In this document: piece by piece, positions 12,590 to 51,409 of the stretch | Layout: every line of letters starts with the position of its first letter | Position numbering within the stretch: position 1 is the stretch's first letter | Assembly (NCBI GenBank): GCA_018692915.1 | Contig: JABHLG010000006.1 | Coordinates: 5,627-69,626 of the forward strand | Direction: 5' to 3' | From: Candidatus Woesearchaeota archaeon | GTDB taxonomy: Archaea; Nanobdellota; Nanobdellia; UBA10117; JABICX01 | DNA: 64,000 bases | The notes under the pieces: generated by a model | What the model saw: only the letters and a program-made list of their open reading frames with translations | Databases searched by the model: none | What the model was told of the DNA's origin: nothing | Position numbers and translations under genes: made by a program

Positions 12590-12943
12590 TTAATCCTTAT
12601 TGTATTTTATTTTAAATTGAGCAAAAATATTATCAAACGGAGGTAATCCTGGATCAACAGGAATAAGACCTTTTGCTTCTAGTCTATCTCCAATATCTTT
12701 TAGACTTTTACCATTGTCATCTACATAAATATAATAATAATTATTAGTTGGTCCATCTGGCAATAGTTTAAATTTTTCACTAGATTTCATTGGGCGAGGA
12801 TATACTATAAAACCCATATCATTTATTGAATCAGGTTGTGCGACTAATGCACCACTCTCATTAATTATTTCTCGTAGATCGTTCTCATCTAGTGTAAGTG
12901 TATAAATTGTTTTACCATTTTCTTTAGATATTTTTTTTTCCAT
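12590..12943 (-). CDS. Hypothetical protein, tightly coupled downstream of srp54
   Basis: 117-aa ORF starting 2 nt after the srp54 stop. No recognised motif. Confidence 0.4.
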   Translation of the reverse strand: MEKKISKENGKTIYTLTLDENDLREIINESGALVAQPDSINDMGFIVYPRPMKSSEKFKLLPDGPTNNYYYIYVDDNGKSLKDIGDRLEAKGLIPVDPGLPPFDNIFAQFKIKYNKD

Positions 12944-12944
12944 T

Positions 12945-14312
12945 TTACATTCCAGGTAGTTTCATACCACCGGGTAAGCCACCTTTGCCACCCATCATTT
13001 TAGCTAATTGCTTCATCTTTTGAGGGCTGCCCATTGACTTCATCATTTTCTGCATCTGCTTGTATTGCTTAAGTAATCCGCGCACTTCTTTTTCATCAGT
13101 GCCCGAGCCATTAGCGATTCTGTTGATTCTAGAAGCATTCATAACATCAGGATTTTCCTTTTCTGTTGGAGTCATAGATTGCATAATAAATTTCCATGTT
13201 TTCATTTTGCTTTCTTGACCTTTAAGCGCATCTTTTGGAACTGCTCCACCCATTCCAGGTATCATACCCATAATTTGTGAGAGCGGACCCATTTTTTGCA
13301 TTGCTTCCATTTGATCATATAAATCTTGAAGTGAAAGTCCTTGACCTTTTGTAACTTTCTTAGCTAATTTCTCAGCTTTATCTTTGTCAATTGCACCTTC
13401 TGCTTTTTTTAGAAGAGTTTCTAAATCTCCCATTCCAAGAATTCGAGATACAAAGTTCTTTGGCTTGAACTCTTCAATTGCATCCATTTTTTCTCCAACT
13501 CCAATAAACATAACTTTTGCTCCAGTAGTTGCGCAAGCTGTTAATGCACCTCCACCTTTTGCAGTTCCATCTAGTTTTGTAATTACAACACCTGTAACTC
13601 CAACGTTTTTGTGGAAAGATTCAGCTTGAGATTGTGCACCTTGACCAATGTCTCCAGAAAGAACTAGAAGTGCTTCATCAGGATTTACTGCTTTATTTAA
13701 CACCTTGATTTCATCTGTTAGCTCTTTGTTTAGAGAATCTCGTCCAGCTGTATCAATTATAACAACATCATATTTTTTGAATTCCTTTTCAAATTCTTTG
13801 ATTATATCTTCAGGTTTTTTAGCAGATGAATTTCCATAAAAATCAACTTTCATTGCTCTAGCTAGCTGCTGTAGCTGTGCATATGCAGCAGGTCGCCATG
13901 TGTCTGTTTGAACAACTGCAACTTTTTTACCTTGTTTTTTATAGTATCGTCCAAGTTTTCCTGCAGTTGTTGTCTTTCCAGACCCAAATAGACCAACTAG
14001 CATTATCTTAGTTGGCTTTTTCTTAAATTCAATCTCTTTGAACTCTTTTCCAAGGAAGTTAGTTAGTTCTTCAAAAACAATATTTACAACATGCTCGCGA
14101 GTTGTTAGACCTTTTGGAGGAGTTTCATTTGTTCCTCTGTCTCTGATTTTCTGAGCAATTTCTTTAGCTAAAGTAATATTAACATCAGCTGCTATCAATG
14201 CTTTTTTGATATCAGAAGATAATTCAATAACTGCTTTTTTATCAACTAGCCCTATATTAGTTATTTTCTTCAAACTTTCCTTTAGTCTATCTGATAATGA
14301 GTCTAATACCAT
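12945..14312 (-). CDS. srp54: Signal recognition particle protein SRP54
   Basis: N domain, G domain (GLFGSGKTTT, DTAGR, TKLDG) and a Met-rich M domain. Confidence 0.95.
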   Translation of the reverse strand: MVLDSLSDRLKESLKKITNIGLVDKKAVIELSSDIKKALIAADVNITLAKEIAQKIRDRGTNETPPKGLTTREHVVNIVFEELTNFLGKEFKEIEFKKKPTKIMLVGLFGSGKTTTAGKLGRYYKKQGKKVAVVQTDTWRPAAYAQLQQLARAMKVDFYGNSSAKKPEDIIKEFEKEFKKYDVVIIDTAGRDSLNKELTDEIKVLNKAVNPDEALLVLSGDIGQGAQSQAESFHKNVGVTGVVITKLDGTAKGGGALTACATTGAKVMFIGVGEKMDAIEEFKPKNFVSRILGMGDLETLLKKAEGAIDKDKAEKLAKKVTKGQGLSLQDLYDQMEAMQKMGPLSQIMGMIPGMGGAVPKDALKGQESKMKTWKFIMQSMTPTEKENPDVMNASRINRIANGSGTDEKEVRGLLKQYKQMQKMMKSMGSPQKMKQLAKMMGGKGGLPGGMKLPGM

Positions 14313-14329
14313 ACTTTTTAGCAGAAATG

Positions 14330-14350
14330 GAGGTTTTTAAGTGCTTTGAT
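14330..14350 (-). promoter_or_regulatory. Promoter block shared by srp54 and ftsY (TATA-like TTAAAAAC)
   Basis: gaggtttttaagtgctttgat begins 18 nt upstream of the srp54 ATG. 20 of 21 nt match 18928..18948, which sits at the same spacing from the ftsY ATG. Confidence 0.55.
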
Positions 14351-14406
14351 TAGAAGATTATAACCGTTAATCTTATAAACTAGTCATTACACAGTAGCAC
14401 TATAGT

Positions 14407-16410
14407 ATGACACTTTCAGAAGTAAAAAATTCGGTTCAAGAAACTATATTTCTTAAAGACCGTATCAAAACAAGTCTAGAAAAAATAATTAAGTTAAATA
14501 AAGAGATAGATCCTGGTGATGACGGATATAAACGATTTGTTAATGCTAAGTCTGATGATATAATGCCATATGTTCAATCTAACTGGACTGATCTTGATGA
14601 GGCTTCGCTGGTTAATGATAGTCAAGTGATTTTATTTGGAGATACCAATCATGCAAAAACAGGTAATATTGGCGGTATGGCAAAGTATATACCTCTTTTG
14701 AAGAAAGCAGGAATTACTGATGTAGCTATTGAGTTTCCAAGAGATGAGAAGAATCTCGAAGCAGTTACTCAGTTTAATGAGACTGGAGACTTGTCTCTGA
14801 TACGACCTATTGCAAATCAGACAAGAACACCTGTACGAATTGTTAGATTTTTTAGAAACGCACATCAAGAAGGAATGAATGTATCTTTAATAGATATGCC
14901 TGAAAAATCTCGGGATTCAAAATGGAGCACTACCCAACTTAACTATCAAAGAGGAATATATATGGGCCAAGTTCTTTCTGAGTTAGCTGAAGATTCTAAT
15001 GTTAAAATTGCGGCTTTTTGTGGTGCGGGACATTTTAGAGAAAAAGAAATACCGAAACAACTAACTGATGATAATATTGCATTTAAGAAATTTGCAGTTG
15101 TTACTCAAGGACAACCTATGTCGTTTATACTTCCAGATAATCAATATGAGATCGGCCCAGCAAATGCAGTAAATAGATGTGATTTATCTAATCGTAGTGG
15201 GTTTGTTGATTTAAATAATAATTACGATTTAGATGGATTTATATATTTTACAAAATCTAGTCTTATTGAGGATCAGAAATCTGCTAAATTAATTCTTGAT
15301 GATATTTCTAGTATTATCCCTTCTGTAGATGCACCAAAAGAAAACGCATTAGCACATTTAACTGGAAGCACAGCAATTCAAACAATTTCACAGCATTTTG
15401 GAAATCGTGTGGATCCATCATTATATACCTGGGAAGGCACAAATACTGAAAAGATTTATGATTTTGTAAATAATATTGACAGTCTAAATAATGGACAGAA
15501 ACTTCATCTATCAATTATGCTGGAGAATTATGTTCGTACTACTCTGCGTCATGGTGGAGGTTCTATACTTAGAATGGAATTTGATTCAGATGCAAACGCA
15601 TTTGGTATAGATACTATTGATACTTTTGGAAAGAAATTTGATGCAGAAGAGTATGCTGCTGCACGTGGAAAACACAGAGAAGTTACGTTAGATATGTTAC
15701 TTTCACAATATAATTTTGAAGACATAATGATTAAAGACGTAAGTCAAATACCTGAGACAGATATTTTACCTAATCCAGAAAATCTAGAAAGTGCACATAA
15801 GGTTATGATATTAATGTCTGCGTATGCGACGCACCCAGAACGGATTACGTGGGCAAATGATCGAAGTACACCTATGATTGGAGTTTATCGGGAAGGAAAT
15901 CATAATGATGATTATATTACTCGACTTGGTATTGAAGATTTTCTATTAACTGATATGGAGAGCAAGCTAGTTGATTTTGAAAAAAAGAATTCCGAGTACA
16001 CTCATAATATGGATAAGTTAAATACATTATTCTATTCATTTAGTAAAGATAAAGCTCTTTCTTTTAGTTATCGTAAAAAAGTGAAAAATTATAGCAGTGA
16101 GTTCATAGCCATATTTAGTGATATTATTTATGCAAGCAATAATGTAACGCGTAAGATAATTAATGCTCGATCTGAGCTACAGTATCTTAGTAACGATTCC
16201 GCAGAAACGCTGATTGAAAATGCTTATAACAAATTAGAAACATATAACGCAGTTATTAATAATGTGGCAGATGTTATGGATAAGAAAAATGTCTATCGAG
16301 GCAAATTTTTTGAAAATGATCTTGACTTTAAGCAGATTATTCAGGATAATCGCGAAATGGTTAAAGATTTAAGAAGTAATCTTAATGACATCAGAACATC
16401 GCTTAATTAA
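14407..16410 (+). CDS. Hypothetical 667-aa protein (cassette X1); N-terminal region has ChaN/Tiki-like motifs
   Basis: ILFGDTNHAKTG ... VAIEFPRDE ... AAFCGAGHFRE resemble the GExH / GxGH pattern of the ChaN (haem-binding uptake)/Tiki/erythromycin-esterase fold. The rest is orphan. Unverified. Confidence 0.45.
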   Translation: MTLSEVKNSVQETIFLKDRIKTSLEKIIKLNKEIDPGDDGYKRFVNAKSDDIMPYVQSNWTDLDEASLVNDSQVILFGDTNHAKTGNIGGMAKYIPLLKKAGITDVAIEFPRDEKNLEAVTQFNETGDLSLIRPIANQTRTPVRIVRFFRNAHQEGMNVSLIDMPEKSRDSKWSTTQLNYQRGIYMGQVLSELAEDSNVKIAAFCGAGHFREKEIPKQLTDDNIAFKKFAVVTQGQPMSFILPDNQYEIGPANAVNRCDLSNRSGFVDLNNNYDLDGFIYFTKSSLIEDQKSAKLILDDISSIIPSVDAPKENALAHLTGSTAIQTISQHFGNRVDPSLYTWEGTNTEKIYDFVNNIDSLNNGQKLHLSIMLENYVRTTLRHGGGSILRMEFDSDANAFGIDTIDTFGKKFDAEEYAAARGKHREVTLDMLLSQYNFEDIMIKDVSQIPETDILPNPENLESAHKVMILMSAYATHPERITWANDRSTPMIGVYREGNHNDDYITRLGIEDFLLTDMESKLVDFEKKNSEYTHNMDKLNTLFYSFSKDKALSFSYRKKVKNYSSEFIAIFSDIIYASNNVTRKIINARSELQYLSNDSAETLIENAYNKLETYNAVINNVADVMDKKNVYRGKFFENDLDFKQIIQDNREMVKDLRSNLNDIRTSLN

Positions 16411-16656
16411 TTAAAGCATTTTCTTTAATAATTTTTTAGGGTTAAATATTTCTAAATCTTTGTATTCTTGCCCTGTTCCACAGTCTCTAATTTTCTGAGC
16501 AATTTCTTTAGCTAAAGTAATATTAACATCAGCTGCTATCAATGCTTTTTTGATATCAGAAGATAATTCAATAACTGCTTTCTTATCAACTAGACCAATA
16601 TTTGTTATTTTCTTCAAACTTTCTTTTAGTCTGTCTGATAATGAGTCTAATACCAT
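16411..16656 (-). pseudogene. In-frame chimera: first 58 codons of srp54 fused to the last about 22 codons of ftsY
   Basis: 16484..16656 matches 14140..14312 (7 of 173 mismatches, all synonymous). 16411..16479 matches 17849..17917 (4 of 69 mismatches). The junction lies at a tgttcc microhomology. Confidence 0.85.
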
Positions 16657-16681
16657 TAAAATAAAGTAAATTTTAGTTTTA

Positions 16682-16700
16682 TAAAGAAGACGAATTGAAG
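16682..16700. repeat. 19-bp perfect direct repeat, copy 1
   Basis: taaagaagacgaattgaag, identical to 17423..17441. Confidence 0.8.
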
Positions 16701-16702
16701 TA

Positions 16703-16975
16703 TTAATGTAAATATTTCAATAGACCTTTTGCACTATTTAATAATGTATTAAATCTAAAATCTTTGAATTCATCAGATATTGAGTCACAATCATTAATTA
16801 ATTCTGTCAATTCAGATTTAGTATTTAGATCGTTGACTTTTTCTATGGCTGACGAATTAATTGTACCATCTTGATTTGTTCCATGTTCGATATAAGATAA
16901 GTTATATGTAGCGAAAGCTAATCTTCCATATATTTCTAAAACTTTTTTCACCTCATCAGATGAATATTTTTTCAT
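16703..16975 (-). CDS. Hypothetical protein (cassette X2)
   Basis: 90-aa ORF, no motif recognised. Confidence 0.3.
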   Translation of the reverse strand: MKKYSSDEVKKVLEIYGRLAFATYNLSYIEHGTNQDGTINSSAIEKVNDLNTKSELTELINDCDSISDEFKDFRFNTLLNSAKGLLKYLH

Positions 16976-17008
16976 TTAACTGTACTAAATAACACTTTTT
17001 AAAGTCTT

Positions 17009-17425
17009 TTGATGTGTGATTTTATGGGAATAGAAATTCTTATGAAAAATGATTTGGAAAAAGGTGCAGAGATTCTCGAATTTTTTATGAGAAAAAGATA
17101 TTCTGAAGAAATGGATTATGATGTTGATAGAGCTTCTTTTGCGAGTACATATATAATAATGGGTTTAAAACACTCAAAAAATGAAGAGTTAGTTGATAGA
17201 ACTAAAGAAATATTGCGTCGTATAATGAATAATTATATGTTTGATGTAGATAAAGATCAGAGTTATTTATATGAATTGACAACAGTATCAACATTTTACC
17301 GGATTCCAGAAACAACTAATTTTTTAGAAAAAATAAAACAAAGTAATGACTATATAAAATTGAATGATAATTTGAAAGATAGAGTTGAACGATGTGTTTT
17401 TACTTTCGAGCAAGAAAAAAATTAA
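17009..17425 (+). CDS. Hypothetical protein (cassette X2)
   Basis: 138-aa ORF, helical composition, no motif recognised. Confidence 0.3.
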   Translation: MMCDFMGIEILMKNDLEKGAEILEFFMRKRYSEEMDYDVDRASFASTYIIMGLKHSKNEELVDRTKEILRRIMNNYMFDVDKDQSYLYELTTVSTFYRIPETTNFLEKIKQSNDYIKLNDNLKDRVERCVFTFEQEKN

Positions 17426-17441
17426 AGAAGACGAATTGAAG
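17423..17441. repeat. 19-bp perfect direct repeat, copy 2
   Basis: taaagaagacgaattgaag, identical to 16682..16700. The pair brackets the two divergent ORFs 16703..17425. Confidence 0.8.
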
Positions 17442-17462
17442 ATATCGAACTGTTTTTAAAAT

Positions 17463-17852
17463 TTGCCACTGATATTTAATATGTCAGAAATTGTTGATAA
17501 TATTTGGGAAAAAACTCGCAAGATTGCGTTAGAATTAACTATTGAAGATGCTAAAGAGATTGCAAGTGCATTTAAGTTTTTTAATGAAGCAGTTGGTACT
17601 AAGCGAATTAATGATGGAGATTATTTCTTGCATACATTTCTTGCAAATGTAGCTCGTTATCAGACTAAATTTACTGATGCGGAAAAAGATTTCTTGCTAA
17701 ATGATGCTAAAACAGGTAGAGGTCAGACAGAAACAGTTATTTTATGTATATTGAATGAGAATAGTTCTAAACATTTAGAAACCTTGGAAGAAAAGAGAGC
17801 ATATCCAATATATAATGTATTTAGTGATGCGATTAATGCTGCATATCCTTAG
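17463..17852 (+). CDS. Hypothetical protein (cassette X2)
   Basis: 129-aa ORF (non-ATG start in the track). Its stop overlaps the ftsY stop convergently. Confidence 0.3.
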   Translation: MPLIFNMSEIVDNIWEKTRKIALELTIEDAKEIASAFKFFNEAVGTKRINDGDYFLHTFLANVARYQTKFTDAEKDFLLNDAKTGRGQTETVILCILNENSSKHLETLEEKRAYPIYNVFSDAINAAYP

Positions 17853-18910
17853 AGCATTTTCTTTAATAATTTTTTAGCATTAAATAGTTCTAAATCTTTG
17901 TATTCTTGCCCTGTTCCGATGAAAAGAATTGGTTTTCCAGTTTCATAGCCCGCAGAGATTATTGCTCCACCACGCTCATCTGCATCAGTTTTTGCTACAA
18001 TTGTTCCATCAATGTTAATCATCTGAGAAAAGTATCTTGCTTGCTCAACTGCATCGTTTCCAGTTAAAGCATCTACAACTAATATTGTGAAATCAGGATG
18101 AATTACTCTTTTGATTTTCTTAAGTTCGTTCATTAAATCTTCAGAAGCGTGCTGTCTTCCAGCAGTGTCAATCATTACAATATCCAAATTTTTTGCTTTT
18201 GCATGCTCCATTGCATCATAAGCAACAGCTGCAGGGTCTGCACCATATTTGTGCTTAACCATTTTGATTTTTAGATTGTCTGCATGATGTTGTAGCTGCT
18301 CAATTGCAGCAGCCCTGAATGTATCGCCCGCTGCAAATACAACAGATTTTTTATGGTCTTGGAAATATTTTCCCAATTTAGCTAAATTAGTTGTTTTTCC
18401 AACACCATTTACACCTACAAAAAGAATTGTTAATGGCTTCTTGTTCTTTGATTCTGCTAACAAATCAATTTGTTTGGGTTTTGTAAGAACTTCTGTTAAA
18501 ATTTCCTTAAGTTTTTCAGAAATAATTTCTGCACTTGGTTTTTGTTTGTTTTCTAAAAGCTCTCTTTTAACTTCTTCAAGAATTCTTTCAGTAATATCAT
18601 AAGCAATATTATTCTGAATTAATGCATCCCCAAAATCTTCAAGAGCAGATTCTATTTTATCTTCTGAGCGCTTTGCAAAGAAACCTTTTTTCTCTTCTGA
18701 AGGGCCTGTGCCCCCTTCGACCTCCCCCGACTTCTGCGAAGTCTCCTCCAAAGGTTTATCTTCTCGGTGAAATCTTGCTGCTATTCTTTCCTTGAGGCTC
18801 TTTTTTTCTTCCTCAACAGGTTTTTCTTCTTTAATTTCTTCCTTAGGTTCCTCTACTTCTTCAACATCTTTCTTAAATTTTGAAAACGCTTCTTTTAATC
18901 GACCGAACAT
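17849..18910 (-). CDS. ftsY: SRP receptor FtsY
   Basis: K/E-rich A domain, N domain and G domain (GVNGVGKTT, DTAGR, AKTDAD). Confidence 0.95.
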   Translation of the reverse strand: MFGRLKEAFSKFKKDVEEVEEPKEEIKEEKPVEEEKKSLKERIAARFHREDKPLEETSQKSGEVEGGTGPSEEKKGFFAKRSEDKIESALEDFGDALIQNNIAYDITERILEEVKRELLENKQKPSAEIISEKLKEILTEVLTKPKQIDLLAESKNKKPLTILFVGVNGVGKTTNLAKLGKYFQDHKKSVVFAAGDTFRAAAIEQLQHHADNLKIKMVKHKYGADPAAVAYDAMEHAKAKNLDIVMIDTAGRQHASEDLMNELKKIKRVIHPDFTILVVDALTGNDAVEQARYFSQMINIDGTIVAKTDADERGGAIISAGYETGKPILFIGTGQEYKDLELFNAKKLLKKML

Positions 18911-18927
18911 AAGACTTAGATAGAATT

Positions 18928-18948
18928 GAGGTTTTTAAGTTCTTTGAT
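18928..18948 (-). promoter_or_regulatory. Promoter block shared by ftsY and srp54
   Basis: gaggtttttaagttctttgat begins 18 nt upstream of the ftsY ATG (see 14330..14350). Confidence 0.55.
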
Positions 18949-36841: not shown

Positions 36842-37252
36842 GTGAAACAAAAAGGTAGTGCAGCTGAGAGAGAATTAGTAGCAATGTTCTGGGGAACAGG
36901 TAACTGGAGCTCATTAAGAATTGCAGGAAGTGGAAGAATGAATTTTCCAAGTCCTGATGTTTTGGCAGGTAATGGTTCACAGATTTTTGCAATTGAAGTA
37001 AAAAGCACAAAACACAAGAGCCAATATATTGATGCAGATCAGATTCAGCAATTGAGAGACTTTGCAGAAAAGTTTGGAGCAACACCTTTGGTTGCAGTTA
37101 AGTTCTCAACAAAATGGCACTTTTGTAGCCCAGATGACATGAAGAAAACCACTTCTGGAAAGCACGTTCTACATAAAGAAAAGCATAAAGATATTGTAAA
37201 GCAGTTTGAAGAAGTTATTTCACGACGACCAGACCAAATAGCTGAGGAGTGA
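36842..37252 (+). CDS. hjc: Holliday junction resolvase Hjc (C-terminus remodelled by an insertion)
   Basis: GSAAERELV...GSG....PDVLA...IFAIEVKS (E...PD...ExK of Hjc), with a GTG start. The last 12 codons read into inserted sequence. Confidence 0.8.
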   Translation: MKQKGSAAERELVAMFWGTGNWSSLRIAGSGRMNFPSPDVLAGNGSQIFAIEVKSTKHKSQYIDADQIQQLRDFAEKFGATPLVAVKFSTKWHFCSPDDMKKTTSGKHVLHKEKHKDIVKQFEEVISRRPDQIAEE

Positions 37253-37288
37253 AGCGATGTGAACTGTCGCAGTCAGTTCACTGGAGAG
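37217..37288. repeat. 72-bp GC-richer insertion with an 8-bp-stem hairpin between duplicated hjc 3' segments
   Basis: Hairpin gtgaactg (37259..37266) / cagttcac (37274..37281). Supplies the current hjc stop TGA (37250..37252). Confidence 0.6.
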
Positions 37289-37354
37289 CAAGTGTTACAT
37301 AAAGAAAAACATGCTCATATAGTTAAACAATTTGAAGAAGTTCTAAATTTGTAA
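37289..37354 (+). pseudogene. Displaced copy of the hjc 3' end (22 codons including the native-looking stop)
   Basis: Encodes QVLHKEKHAHIVKQFEEVLNL*, against HVLHKEKHKDIVKQFEEV in the gene (37163..37216). 12 of 54 nt differ, 8 at third positions. Same reading frame as hjc. Confidence 0.8.
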
Positions 37355-47516: not shown

Positions 47517-47556
47517 GAATAATATTGTTTTTAACTTAGAGATTTATTATAGTATT

Positions 47557-47610
47557 ATGCAATACATATCTGATTTACATCTTCATAGCAGATTTTCTAG
47601 AGCTACATCC
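47557..47610 (+). pseudogene. Displaced duplicate of the first 18 codons (including ATG) of the PHP-domain gene
   Basis: Encodes MQYISDLHLHSRFSRATS, against MKYIADLHLHSRFSRATS at 47688..47741. 10 of 54 nt differ, 7 at third positions, giving 2 aa changes. Confidence 0.85.
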
Positions 47611-47687
47611 AAACTTTTTCAGAAAAAGTTTGACCAAAAACGCTGCTCATATATAATTTGTATTAAATCGCAGCAGGAGATATATGT
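47611..47687. repeat. Hairpin element, short form (family copy), abutting the ATG of the PHP gene
   Basis: aaactttttcagaaaaagttt (identical to 51078..51098) followed by aaaacgctgctcatatataatttgtattaaatcgcagcagg (compare 51155..51196). Confidence 0.8.
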
Positions 47688-48980
47688 ATGAAATATATTG
47701 CTGACTTGCACTTACATAGCAGATTTTCTAGAGCTACATCTAACAAGCTAGACCTACCTAATCTTGAGAAATATGGTAAGATAAAGGGACTTAATTTGCT
47801 TGGAACGGGAGATTTTATGCATCCACAATGGCAGAAAGAGCTAAAGTCTGAACTAACTACAGATGGTTCTGGAATTTACAAAACAAAGTCAAGATATCCT
47901 TTTGTTCTTTCAAATGAGATTTCTTTAATGTATCGTCAGGGCGATAAAGGTCGTAGAGCACACGTTGTTCTTCTTGCGCCAAATATGGATGTTGTGGACC
48001 AAATTACAGATTACTTCAAAAAATTTGGTAGAGTTGATTATGATGGTCGACCAATATTCGGTAAGAGTATAATTGAAGTTACAGAAGGGCTAAATAATAT
48101 ATCTAATGATATTGAAATAATACCTGCACACATATGGACACCTTGGTTTGGTTTGCTTGGTTCAAAATCAGGTTTTGATTCATTTAAAGAAGCACTTGGT
48201 GACCAAATAAAGCATATTCATTCATTTGAAACAGGACTTAGTTCTGACCCTGAGATGAATTGGCGAGTTTCTGAACTAGATAAATTTACAGCTCTGTCTT
48301 TTTCAGATGCACATAGCCATTGGCCTTGGAGAATTGGTAGGGAAGCAACTTTGTTTGACTTGAAAAATCTAACTTACAAAGATTTAATTAACGCAATTCG
48401 AACACGAGACGGCTATGAAGGAACAATTGAAGTTGACCCTGGTTATGGACGGTATCATCATGATGGACACAGAAATTGTGGAGTTAGTTTCATTCCACAG
48501 ATTTCTAAAAAGTATAATGATATTTGCCCAGTTTGTAAAAAGCCACTTACAATTGGAGTTATGTATCGAGTTGAAGAATTAGCAGATAGGCCAGAAGGAT
48601 ATACACCAAAAAATGCAGCAAAAGTATACAAATTACTACCTTTATCTGATTTGATTTCTGGAGTAGTTGGAACAGGAGTAGCAACGCAAAAGGTTTGGGA
48701 AATTTTCAACAAACTAATTGATAATTTTGGTTCAGAATACAATGTTCTTCTAAATGTTTCTGCAGATGATTTGCAAAAAGTTGTGGATGAAAATATAGTT
48801 CAGTTTATCTTAAAGAATCGTGCAGGTCAGATTGAAGTTAAGCCAGGTTATGATGGTGTTTATGGCGAAGCAATCTTTGGAGAGAAACCACAACCTAAAC
48901 CATTTGTATCTGAACGCCCGGCTAGTATGGAACAACAAAAACAAATAGAAAAACCCCAAAAGAGTTTAACTGATTTCTAA
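47688..48980 (+). CDS. PHP-domain phosphoesterase with an internal zinc ribbon (COG1379-like)
   Basis: ADLHLHSRFSRATS (PHP motif I), HIWTPW, FSDAHS, CPVCKKPLT. The architecture matches the archaeal COG1379 family. Confidence 0.7.
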   Translation: MKYIADLHLHSRFSRATSNKLDLPNLEKYGKIKGLNLLGTGDFMHPQWQKELKSELTTDGSGIYKTKSRYPFVLSNEISLMYRQGDKGRRAHVVLLAPNMDVVDQITDYFKKFGRVDYDGRPIFGKSIIEVTEGLNNISNDIEIIPAHIWTPWFGLLGSKSGFDSFKEALGDQIKHIHSFETGLSSDPEMNWRVSELDKFTALSFSDAHSHWPWRIGREATLFDLKNLTYKDLINAIRTRDGYEGTIEVDPGYGRYHHDGHRNCGVSFIPQISKKYNDICPVCKKPLTIGVMYRVEELADRPEGYTPKNAAKVYKLLPLSDLISGVVGTGVATQKVWEIFNKLIDNFGSEYNVLLNVSADDLQKVVDENIVQFILKNRAGQIEVKPGYDGVYGEAIFGEKPQPKPFVSERPASMEQQKQIEKPQKSLTDF

Positions 48981-51003: not shown

Positions 51004-51038
51004 AATAAATTCTAAAATAACAGCTTTATAAAACTTCT

Positions 51039-51077
51039 TAGTTCAAGACTTCAGTAACCTTAGCTTTTATGTCTGCG
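51039..51077 (-). pseudogene. Displaced duplicate of the last 13 codons (including stop) of rps27e
   Basis: Encodes ADIKAKVTEVLN*, against ADIKSKVTEVLN* at 51235..51197. 5 of 39 nt differ, 4 of them synonymous third-position changes. Confidence 0.85.
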
Positions 51078-51196
51078 AAACTTTTTCAGAAAAAGTTTCA
51101 TCACCAAGCTGAACTTTGTTCAGCGAGGCCAAGAAAATCAAAGATTTTCTCTGGAAAACGTTGCTCATATGTGTTGGTGTTCAATCGCAACAATAA
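51078..51196. repeat. Hairpin element, long (composite) form, abutting the rps27e stop codon
   Basis: Left hairpin at 51078..51098. Inner two-hairpin module catcaccaagc-tgaactttgttca-gcgaggccaagaaaatcaaagattttctctgg at 51099..51154. Right arm at 51155..51196. Confidence 0.8.
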
Positions 51197-51409
51197 TTAA
51201 TTTAATACTTCAGTAACCTTAGATTTTATATCTGCTTTTCCGCCTTTTGATTTAGCTAAAAGTTCATCACAAACAAGGCATTTTACATCGCTTGCAGCTT
51301 TTTCGAAAATAATTTGAATATTTTTACATTTAGCACATTTTACTTTTATAAAACTTGAACTTGGACCTTTATCTTTTACCATTTTAGTTGTTCTCCTTTT
51401 GTTTTGCAA
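51197..51409 (-). CDS. rps27e: Ribosomal protein S27e
   Basis: Zinc ribbon VKCAKCKN...VKCLVCDE. The true start may be the internal MVKDKG. Confidence 0.85.
   Translation of the reverse strand: MQNKRRTTKMVKDKGPSSSFIKVKCAKCKNIQIIFEKAASDVKCLVCDELLAKSKGGKADIKSKVTEVLN

Follow-up and report, generated by a model that had tools for sequence, protein, structure and literature searches.

The locus described here is the interval between ftsY and srp54, the genes for both GTPases of the signal recognition particle (SRP), in a marine population of Candidatus Woesearchaeota. It was analyzed in a 64-kb stretch of DNA (termed the window herein; feature coordinates are window positions) by sequence comparison and with assembled contigs, and it is carried by the metagenome-assembled genomes (MAGs) GCA_018672575.1 and GCA_018646145.1. 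Samples containing this population include JGI 3300025659, 3300025644, and 3300004111 and ENA ERZ27250245. Read on the minus strand, the order is L31e, eIF6, LX, pfdA, ftsY, X2, an open reading frame (ORF) of 81 amino acids (aa), X1 (on the opposite strand), srp54, orf117, L21e, and RpoF. X1 and X2 are unrelated gene cassettes, and between the intact ftsY and srp54 genes the unit consisting of an ftsY 3′ end, a cassette, and an srp54 5′ end is stacked twice, as had been proposed in an earlier note made from the sequence of this DNA alone.

The flanks of the two units are direct repeats, detected both by a repeat search and by self-blastn, and they are by far the strongest repeats of the window. 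The 5′ end of srp54 (14130 to 14312) recurs at 16474 to 16656 (183 nucleotides [nt], 95% identity, E = 2e-78), and the 3′ end of ftsY (17849 to 17917) recurs at 16411 to 16479 (69 nt, 94%, E = 2e-23). The copies at 16411 to 16656 abut inside the intact 81-aa ORF (minus strand), which is an in-frame SRP54::FtsY chimera, in agreement with the earlier note. The encoded protein (MVLDS...KIRD-C-GTGQEYKDLEIFNPKKLLKKML) comprises SRP54 residues 1 to 58, a variant codon 59 (Cys), Gly-Thr, and then the last 20 residues of the FtsY C-terminal tail; across the joint the peptide reads ...KIRDCGTGQEYK..., and Pfam SRP54_N matches the chimera with an E value of 4e-10. The mismatch counts reported earlier were also reproduced, with seven differences in 16484 to 16656, all of them synonymous, and four in the ftsY copy, two synonymous and two not. 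The tttataaa box that had been noticed upstream of the chimera is present at 16678 to 16685, 22 to 29 nt before the ATG, which is the canonical distance.

The switch from one gene to the other lies exactly at a 6-nt microhomology, TGTTCC (GGAACA on the coding strand), which was likewise recognized before and which we located three times (14130 to 14135, 16474 to 16479, and 17912 to 17917). GGAACA encodes Gly-Thr at srp54 codons 60 and 61 and at ftsY codons −22 and −21 (counted from the end). A crossover between the paralogues at equivalent positions was ruled out, since the joint links the SRP54 N domain (residues 60 and 61) to the FtsY C-terminal tail; because the GGAACA positions are non-equivalent in the paralogous GTPases, the joint is illegitimate and microhomology based. 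The earlier note had described a joint of 4 nt, which we do not find as such: bases 16480 to 16483 (acag) align base for base with srp54 14136 to 14139 (tctg), none is inserted, and they correspond to the last base of codon 58 and to codon 59, which is TGT here and AGA in the resident gene. The apparent filler is srp54 codon 59 in another allelic state. An inverted repeat in srp54 (14115 to 14139; GGAGGA...TCCTCT) is capable of forming a hairpin and overlaps the GGAACA breakpoint; hairpin structures favor illegitimate joints. The features of the locus are collected in Table 1.

TABLE 1 Features of the ftsY-srp54 interval and its flanking genes, in window positions
Feature	Position	Strand	Description
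Intact srp54	12945..14312	-	455 aa; N, G, and M domains; Pfam SRP54_N, SRP54, SRP_SPB
Resident copy of the srp54 5′ repeat	14130..14312	-	Codons 1-61; GGAACA at 14130-14135; 95% identical to 16474-16656
Ancestral 44-nt ftsY-srp54 spacer with conserved srp54 promoter	14313..14356	-	ATCAAAGCACTTAAAAACCTC at 14330-14350
Cassette X1	14357..16410	+	Own promoter region and 667-aa ORF 14407..16410
Chimera SRP54(1-58)-Cys59::FtsY(last 22 aa and stop)	16411..16656	-	81 aa, in-frame
Copy of the 3′-terminal 69 nt of ftsY, stop included	16411..16479	-	94% identical to 17849-17917; TGTTCC at 16474-16479
Alternative srp54 promoter/5′ UTR (untranslated region) variant before the chimera	16657..16700	-	TATA box tttataaa 16678-16685; copy 1 of the 19-nt repeat 16682-16700
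Nested module within X2	16701..17422	.	X2a 16703..16975 (-, 90 aa); X2b 17009/17024..17425 (+, 133-138 aa)
Copy 2 of the 19-nt direct repeat	17423..17441	+	TAAAGAAGACGAATTGAAG; piece of the srp54 promoter variant
X2c with promoter	17442..17852	+	ORF 17481..17852, 123 aa; stop overlaps the ftsY stop convergently
Intact ftsY	17849..18910	-	353 aa; 3′ repeat copy 17849-17917; microhomology 17912-17917
ftsY promoter motif	18928..18948	-	ATCAAAGAACTTAAAAACCTC; the same motif precedes srp54

A stack of this kind could in principle arise in silico, if X1 and X2 were alleles of co-assembled strains that had been wrongly concatenated; the earlier note had named the lack of sequence running from 16380 to 16700 into both sides as the sign of such an error. 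Look-ups by exact protein gave 33 index blocks with the chimera and 29 with FtsY, and 12 distinct contigs from 12 samples (MEGAHIT-style k141 contigs, JGI assemblies, METAG scaffolds, and NCBI MAGs) span X2, the chimera, X1, and srp54 at 99.95 to 100% identity over 6.1 kb, with 11 of the 12 also covering all of ftsY. These assemblies come from different assemblers and span the stack identically. Some other assemblies contain breaks or an N gap inside the central 92 nt over which the two srp54 copies are identical (L012, L016, L018, and L118 to L121); this speaks for an artifact, and it is also the effect that a short exact repeat has on an assembly graph. The identical core is shorter than a read and is flanked by single-nucleotide polymorphisms (SNPs) specific to each copy, and the srp54::ftsY joint could not be created by concatenating two alleles and must exist in the reads. 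No single-cassette contig was among the contigs found: X1 and X2c were never seen in another arrangement, and the stack was the same in all contigs that carry this FtsY, X1, or X2c. The 12 spanning contigs effectively refute an artifact, to which we assign a negligible probability; the stack is real and fixed in the population.

The chimera is identical and intact in all population contigs. As the population is clonal, this intactness says nothing about selection. An AlphaFold2 model of the chimera made without an alignment had a mean predicted local distance difference test (pLDDT) score of 66, with three SRP54-type helices and a poorly placed tail, and because of this low confidence we drew no functional inference from it. 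The chimera is most likely a scar or by-product that may be transcribed, rather than a selected gene.

We next turn to the same interval in relatives. SRP54 homologues at 82 to 97% identity and their contigs, together with a scan of metagenome contigs with the chimera, yielded nine congeneric loci. All nine keep the order pfdA-ftsY-interval-srp54-L21e, and ftsY and srp54 have the same strand and order in the window, in these nine loci, and in seven more distant Woesearchaeota. The site is empty in two congeners (43 nt in L110 and 44 nt in L109) and holds different ORFan cassettes in the other seven: the interval measures 422 nt in L114 (one gene, 35% identical to X2a), 666 nt in L111 and L103 (one 201-aa ORF), 1040 nt in L108 (including a gene 35% identical to X2b), 1589 nt in L113 and 1691 nt in L104 (both with ORFan cargo), and 1956 nt in L107, the closest relative (SRP54 97% identical, about 89% nucleotide identity), where the cargo includes a methyltransferase. 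In the window, with its two stacked units, it measures 3536 nt. The cargo is mostly unrelated between species, with the recurring X2a- and X2b-like genes as listed. The ftsY-srp54 interval is a genuine conserved-flank hot spot, which is what the earlier note had suspected.

From the empty sites, the ancestral state is the ftsY stop codon, a 44-nt spacer with promoter AATCAAAGnACTTAAAAACCT, and the srp54 ATG. Positions 14313 to 14356 of the window, which had been counted as the beginning of X1, match the whole intergenic spacer at the empty sites L109 and L110, and they also align with L107 and L104. As the window retains this spacer intact, X1 proper is 14357 to 16410 and is inserted directly after an ftsY stop codon. 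Among the relatives, the insertion points vary, lying either after the stop codon or between promoter and ATG.

Two further observations were made on this interval in other genomes. An apparent strain difference in cargo between L104 and L106 was ruled out, being explained by a truncated contig and one nonsense SNP; the latter (L106:1-760 versus L104:7691-8446, both from the P0013 species) changes TTG to TAG in a 371-aa cassette gene of one strain, suggesting that this gene is dispensable. In L033, a distant Woesearchaeota MAG, the interval contains a perfect 55-nt direct repeat (2324 to 2378 and 2479 to 2533, spacing 155 nt). The interval of this distant clade (L029, L033, and L039) holds a conserved three-gene set, which indicates that the fast turnover belongs to the marine genus studied here.

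The X2 cassette does contain the three small ORFs described in the earlier note; its structure is not simple, being composite with a nested insertion. X2a, X2b, and X2c are small helical ORFans with no Pfam, PHROG, or PADLOC annotation, and a word-indexed homologue search with X2b returned only X2b itself. A perfect 19-nt direct repeat (16682 to 16700 and 17423 to 17441; two exact copies versus 0.06 expected) brackets X2a and X2b and was found twice in every population contig. Its sequence belongs to a promoter variant that L111 has too. The X2a-like gene of L114 stands alone at this site, and the X2b-like gene of L108 occupies the same site. X2 is thus itself layered, and the 19-nt repeat suggests that a broadly similar insertion had taken place earlier, in what was then a compact, divergent promoter region between srp54 and X2c.

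The differences between the two flank copies bear on where the second unit came from. Over srp54 codons 1 to 58, the copies differ by seven synonymous and no nonsynonymous substitutions (proportions of differing synonymous and nonsynonymous sites, pS 0.19 and pN 0), and seven of seven being synonymous has a probability of about 2e-5 under random substitution. The chimera-type states at the seven sites are 24C, 33A, 54A, 60T, 63T, 75G, and 168T. The ftsY part has two synonymous and two conservative differences (pS 0.16), so that the flank copies show a synonymous-to-nonsynonymous ratio of 9:2 overall, with codon 59 excluded. The ftsY tail differences sit at positions that vary between species, and the states found in the chimera (Pro and CTT) are common to other species; codon 59 of the chimera, TGT, is one step from the CGT of four relatives, and L107 shares AGA with the resident gene. 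Since the divergence is synonymous only, the srp54 copies come from functional genes of two lineages and not from a duplicate decaying in situ. The two copies are allelic in nature, in line with the allelic origin considered in the earlier note, and, judged from the substitution pattern, their divergence appears to have built up in functional genes of two lineages about one-third as far apart as the window and L107.

The sequences around the copies have a mixed ancestry. The 20 nt before the chimera ATG are identical to the srp54 5′ UTR of L107, and the adjacent promoter piece, CAATTCGTC..CTTTA, is common to the chimera and the srp54 promoter of L111, which shows that the flanks are mosaic. 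In a comparison with L107, the identity of the window's srp54 dips at both gene ends, where the gene borders on variable DNA (83 to 88% versus 94 to 99% in mid-gene). Both srp54 copies match L107 equally, at 152 of 174 positions, so that similarity to L107 does not tell import from resident. Peaks of mostly synonymous substitution at island borders have been described as a signature of recombinational island replacement (PMC4033161).

The best reading of these data, and in our judgment a reasonably probable one, is an additive capture in which a second allelic unit was anchored by homology and joined illegitimately at a microhomology, resembling homology-facilitated illegitimate recombination (HFIR); the recombination pathway, its direction, and the transfer of DNA between cells are what we infer. 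On this reading, lineages would swap ORFan cassettes at the hot-spot spacer through recombination within the conserved termini of ftsY and srp54, and one exchange in this species would have been additive instead of replacing. DNA of a related lineage (synonymous divergence about 0.17) would have brought its own ftsY 3′ end, cassette, promoter, and srp54 5′ end; the flank copies, at 94 to 95% identity and with pS of 0.16 to 0.19, are consistent with a donor and a recipient sequence. The incoming linear fragment would have recombined homologously on one side, inside a flanking gene, and would have been joined illegitimately on the other, where GGAACA of the srp54 codons met GGAACA of the ftsY codons. 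Such an event would leave both essential genes intact, keep both cassettes, and make the joint an in-frame mini-ORF behind a working-looking promoter. X2 would have received its two-gene insertion earlier, by recombination at the 19-nt piece of the srp54 promoter. X1 is probably the newcomer and X2 the older resident, because homologues of X1 are scarce and occur in unrelated surroundings, whereas genes resembling X2a and X2b are found at this very site in L114 and L108. We favor the HFIR route because it needs a single event, damages neither essential gene, and accounts for the absence of filler; an illegitimate joint at a 6-nt microhomology without filler is the mark of an HFIR product, and it is present here. 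HFIR is defined in PMC3240628, and HFIR and orphan-leaving products are documented in PMC3240628 and PMC5361080; in PMC5361080, HFIR is proposed for stacked orphan modules in type VI secretion system (T6SS) and Rhs loci.

The spacing of the repeats, 2,344 nt, also defines a possible circle unit, and Campbell-type integration was one of the routes put forward in the earlier note. Here, a donor segment between GGAACA sites would close into a 2.3-kb circle, with the chimera as the closure joint, and integrate by a single crossover in the 69- or 183-nt homology. The predicted product is exactly the one observed, the nested 19-nt repeat has the same topology, and in Escherichia coli linear incoming DNA is often circularized and integrated by a single crossover, according to PMC3240628. 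The identical central 92 nt of the srp54 copies would suit a heteroduplex or conversion tract at the crossover, but a gap of this length among nine differences is not significant. Two rare events would be needed, namely, an illegitimate closure and then a crossover in 69 to 183 nt at 95% identity, and cutting the segment out of the donor chromosome would disrupt two essential genes there. Neither a circular contig nor one limited to the junction is on record; the repeat-bounded contigs of 2.3 kb that exist (L119 to L121) match the lengths expected of repeat-bounded de Bruijn unitigs. We regard this route as unlikely.

The microhomology joint could alternatively have been made by a tandem duplication at GGAACA, through unequal exchange or template switching, with one cassette and its flanks replaced later from another lineage. 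Microhomology-mediated tandem duplication is common and yields such a joint, the duplication would be viable since both genes stay intact, cassette replacement at this site is evident between species, and the mosaic promoters show repeated exchange. The scheme takes at least two events where one suffices, and no intermediate with the same cassette twice was found in any relative or strain examined. Divergence in situ is contradicted by the seven of seven synonymous differences and by the CGT-like codon 59, so that import from a second lineage would still be needed. A duplication-first history is, in our view, improbable.

Direct repeats of gene termini around inserted DNA are the classic signature of integrative elements, and X1 or X2 might be an element, or the remnant of one, with an att site at a gene terminus and a recombinase encoded elsewhere. 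The perfect 19-nt repeat around the nested module could be an att core, and two other loci of the window have terminus duplicates beside a common small hairpin element. Searches with Pfam, PHROG, and PADLOC on the window cargo found no recombinase domain (integrase, transposase, or other) in X1 or X2a to X2c, and none was found in 10 cassette proteins of relatives; nor were viral or mobile-element homologues found when viral contigs were searched with X1, X2c, and the hairpin element. The would-be att repeats are 69 and 183 nt of ordinary coding sequence with synonymous differences and have only GGAACA in common: X1 is flanked by srp54 5′ ends and X2 by ftsY 3′ ends, so no single att core exists. 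Together with the differing entry points of the relatives' cassettes, this makes site-specific integration very improbable.

Several points weigh against the HFIR-like capture that we favor. HFIR, circle integration, unequal exchange, and duplication with replacement give an identical product, which does not discriminate between them; of the earlier proposal of Campbell-type integration or unequal exchange, the stacked allelic units stand, and the pathway is one of several that would fit. The population is clonal at the locus and offers no polymorphism for testing selection or dating the event. The synonymous-only pattern could also come from purifying selection on the chimera peptide, and the dips in srp54 identity may be due in part to weaker constraint on the N-terminal helices and on the tail of the M domain. 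A donor is not on record in the collections searched, and neither is an X1-only or an X2-only allele, for which the earlier note had suggested looking; the searches comprised exact-protein look-ups (chimera, FtsY, X1, X2c, and the SRP54 variant P0169), members of 90%-identity clusters, a scan of genome contigs with FtsY, and a scan of metagenome contigs with the chimera. Comparable scars are rare in relatives: neither a chimera nor a terminus duplicate was found at this site, and 362 kb of related loci contained few. To our knowledge, HFIR has been shown experimentally only in bacteria.

The cargo of X1 is a protein of a rare family, with 45 representative homologues among 1.84 billion sequences, some of them modules of proteins of 1.3 to 5.1 kaa (thousand aa). 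It had no Pfam hit above threshold, no PHROG match, and no PADLOC hit. The family shows the invariant pattern GDTNH..E..D..R..GxGH, and in 14 members D79, T80, H82, E109, D163, R182, G206, and H209 are invariant. In Foldseek searches, the AlphaFold2 model (pLDDT 82) matched the RRSP effector domain of MARTX toxins (6a7h and 5w6l, E = 6e-5 to 4e-4), HopBA1 (5t09, template modeling [TM] score 0.56 on the target), the C-terminal fragment of Pasteurella multocida toxin (PMT; 2ebf), and the erythromycin esterase EreC (6xcq). X1 is predicted from this model to be a candidate toxin-type hydrolase of the TIKI/RRSP kind (TIKI/EreA superfamily). It would share the predicted fold with the toxins of the TIKI/erythromycin-esterase superfamily (RRSP, PMT C1, and HopBA1), the superfamily residue pattern GxxH...E...R...GxGH is invariant in its family, and, like TIKI-type toxin domains, it also occurs as a module of giant proteins. 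As for differences, sequence identity is 13 to 19%, and X1 has an extra C-terminal region of ∼380 aa with long helices. The X1 model also gave weak Foldseek matches (E = 0.01 to 0.1) to structures of the SRP54/FtsY NG domains, which most likely represent a generic alpha/beta similarity but are a curious finding for a gene located between ftsY and srp54.

Gene-terminus duplicates beside inserted DNA were also seen at two further loci of the window, in agreement with the recurrence suggested in the earlier note together with the small-element loci. At 47556 to 47743, the first 57 nt (18 codons, MxYIxDLHLHSRFSRATS) of a PHP-like gene (47688..48980) are copied at 82% identity 131 nt upstream of its start; the copy opens a 44-aa ORF, and about 75 nt of inserted DNA lie between copy and gene. 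At 51038 to 51235, the last 39 nt of the S27e gene (51197..51409, minus strand) are copied at 87% identity 159 nt downstream of its 3′ end, with an insert of ∼120 nt. The two inserts (47611 to 47686 and 51077 to 51196) represent a single family of small elements: both contain AAACTTTTTCAGAAAAAGTTT without a mismatch (0.04 expected), as well as AAAACGyTGCTCATATrT..AATCGCAnCA, and they fold into short perfect hairpins in series (z = −2.0 and −3.5) with one compensatory stem change (GCUGC/GCAGC versus GUUGC/GCAAC). No Rfam family was found in the window, the hairpin element included, and neither X1, X2c, nor the hairpin element had a match in viral contigs. A 62-nt direct repeat (37155 to 37216 and 37281 to 37342; 79% identity, spacing 126 nt) is probably an internal repeat of coding sequence.

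A far-reaching extension, which we consider a long shot, is that marine Woesearchaeota, and perhaps DPANN archaea, possess an integrase-free route of gene gain in which the termini and promoters of housekeeping genes serve as portable homology arms, possibly with small circular intermediates and expressed mini-proteins, and that the three scars of the window stem from one recurrent mechanism. If true, ORFan and toxin-like genes would be acquired and shuffled without an integrase, and small circles consisting of gene end, cassette, and gene start would be possible. Mini-proteins such as the SRP54-N::FtsY-C chimera could then interfere with or tune SRP targeting, and the three terminus-duplication scars of the window, with the hairpin element common to two of them, would be traces of that mechanism.

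Other spacers of the conserved gene cluster vary between these genomes as well, namely, L31e-eIF6, srp54-L21e, and L21e-RpoF. The gene directly downstream of srp54, orf117 (12590 to 12943), is absent in L107 and L104, where the srp54-L21e gap is 40 to 75 nt, and L103, the P0005 genome, and others have different genes in its place; the srp54-L21e spacer is another cassette site. A 21-nt promoter motif, ATCAAAGnACTTAAAAACCTC, lies upstream of both srp54 (14330 to 14350) and ftsY (18928 to 18948), with two matches versus 0.03 expected, and is kept upstream of srp54 in several congeners. To judge by these near-identical promoters, the two SRP GTPase genes may be co-regulated. A scan for sigma-70 promoters and terminators was set aside, since such a scan is not informative in archaea.

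DPANN archaea have tiny genomes with many lineage-specific ORFans and few recognizable mobile elements, and gene gain in them is poorly documented. The locus provides a clean, population-fixed molecular record, with an empty site in relatives, alternative cargos, and a two-sided scar, which together point to cassettes being gained when the termini of essential genes recombine and a microhomology provides the joint. It also flags a predicted TIKI/RRSP-like toxin-type protein as cargo, and it offers two practical markers, the joint of the chimera and the 19-nt repeat, with which to look for donors, circles, and strain alleles in metagenomes of the Saanich Inlet type.

Among known systems, the minimal mobile elements (MMEs) of Neisseria, by the definition quoted in PMC3082526 (Saunders and Snyder 2002; Snyder et al. 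2007), also have two conserved genes that flank different whole-gene cassettes in different lineages, and these cassettes likewise lack mobility genes of their own, their incorporation being attributed to homologous recombination in the flanks. Unlike in Neisseria, the host here is a DPANN archaeon and not a naturally transformable bacterium, and the variation is seen between species of a genus, with one stack in all conspecific contigs; MMEs are normally mutually exclusive replacements, whereas two cassettes are stacked here with a chimera of the two flanks. The HFIR "orphan" arrays, for which PMC3240628 and PMC5361080 cover Acinetobacter, Streptococcus pneumoniae, Pseudomonas stutzeri, the T6SS effector-immunity arrays of Vibrio cholerae, and Rhs C-terminal displacement, would share with our locus the one-sided homologous anchor with an illegitimate joint at the other end and the additive insertion that displaces an older module and leaves a gene-end fragment. 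Such arrays can be enlarged round after round, which is what the nested 19-nt repeat suggests for our locus. In contrast to these arrays, the anchors at our locus are housekeeping GTPases and not toxin loci, the mechanism is read from one product, and in the scar the ends of the two flanking genes form one uninterrupted in-frame ORF that has a promoter. Replacement flexible genomic islands of aquatic prokaryotes (Lopez-Perez, Martin-Cuadrado, and Rodriguez-Valera 2014, PMC4033161) occupy fixed positions, are swapped homologously between clonal frames, and have borders with mostly synonymous substitutions, to which the 9:2 synonymous excess and the dips at the srp54 ends correspond; they differ in holding tens of kilobases of surface-structure genes, compared with 0.4 to 2 kb and one to three ORFan genes here, and in that the outcome here was additive and not a replacement. 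In its logic the locus matches bacterial MMEs, HFIR, and replacement islands, and it is not a new kind of mobile element; what is particular to it is the DPANN host, the use of ftsY and srp54 as anchors, and the in-frame fusion of both flanking termini.

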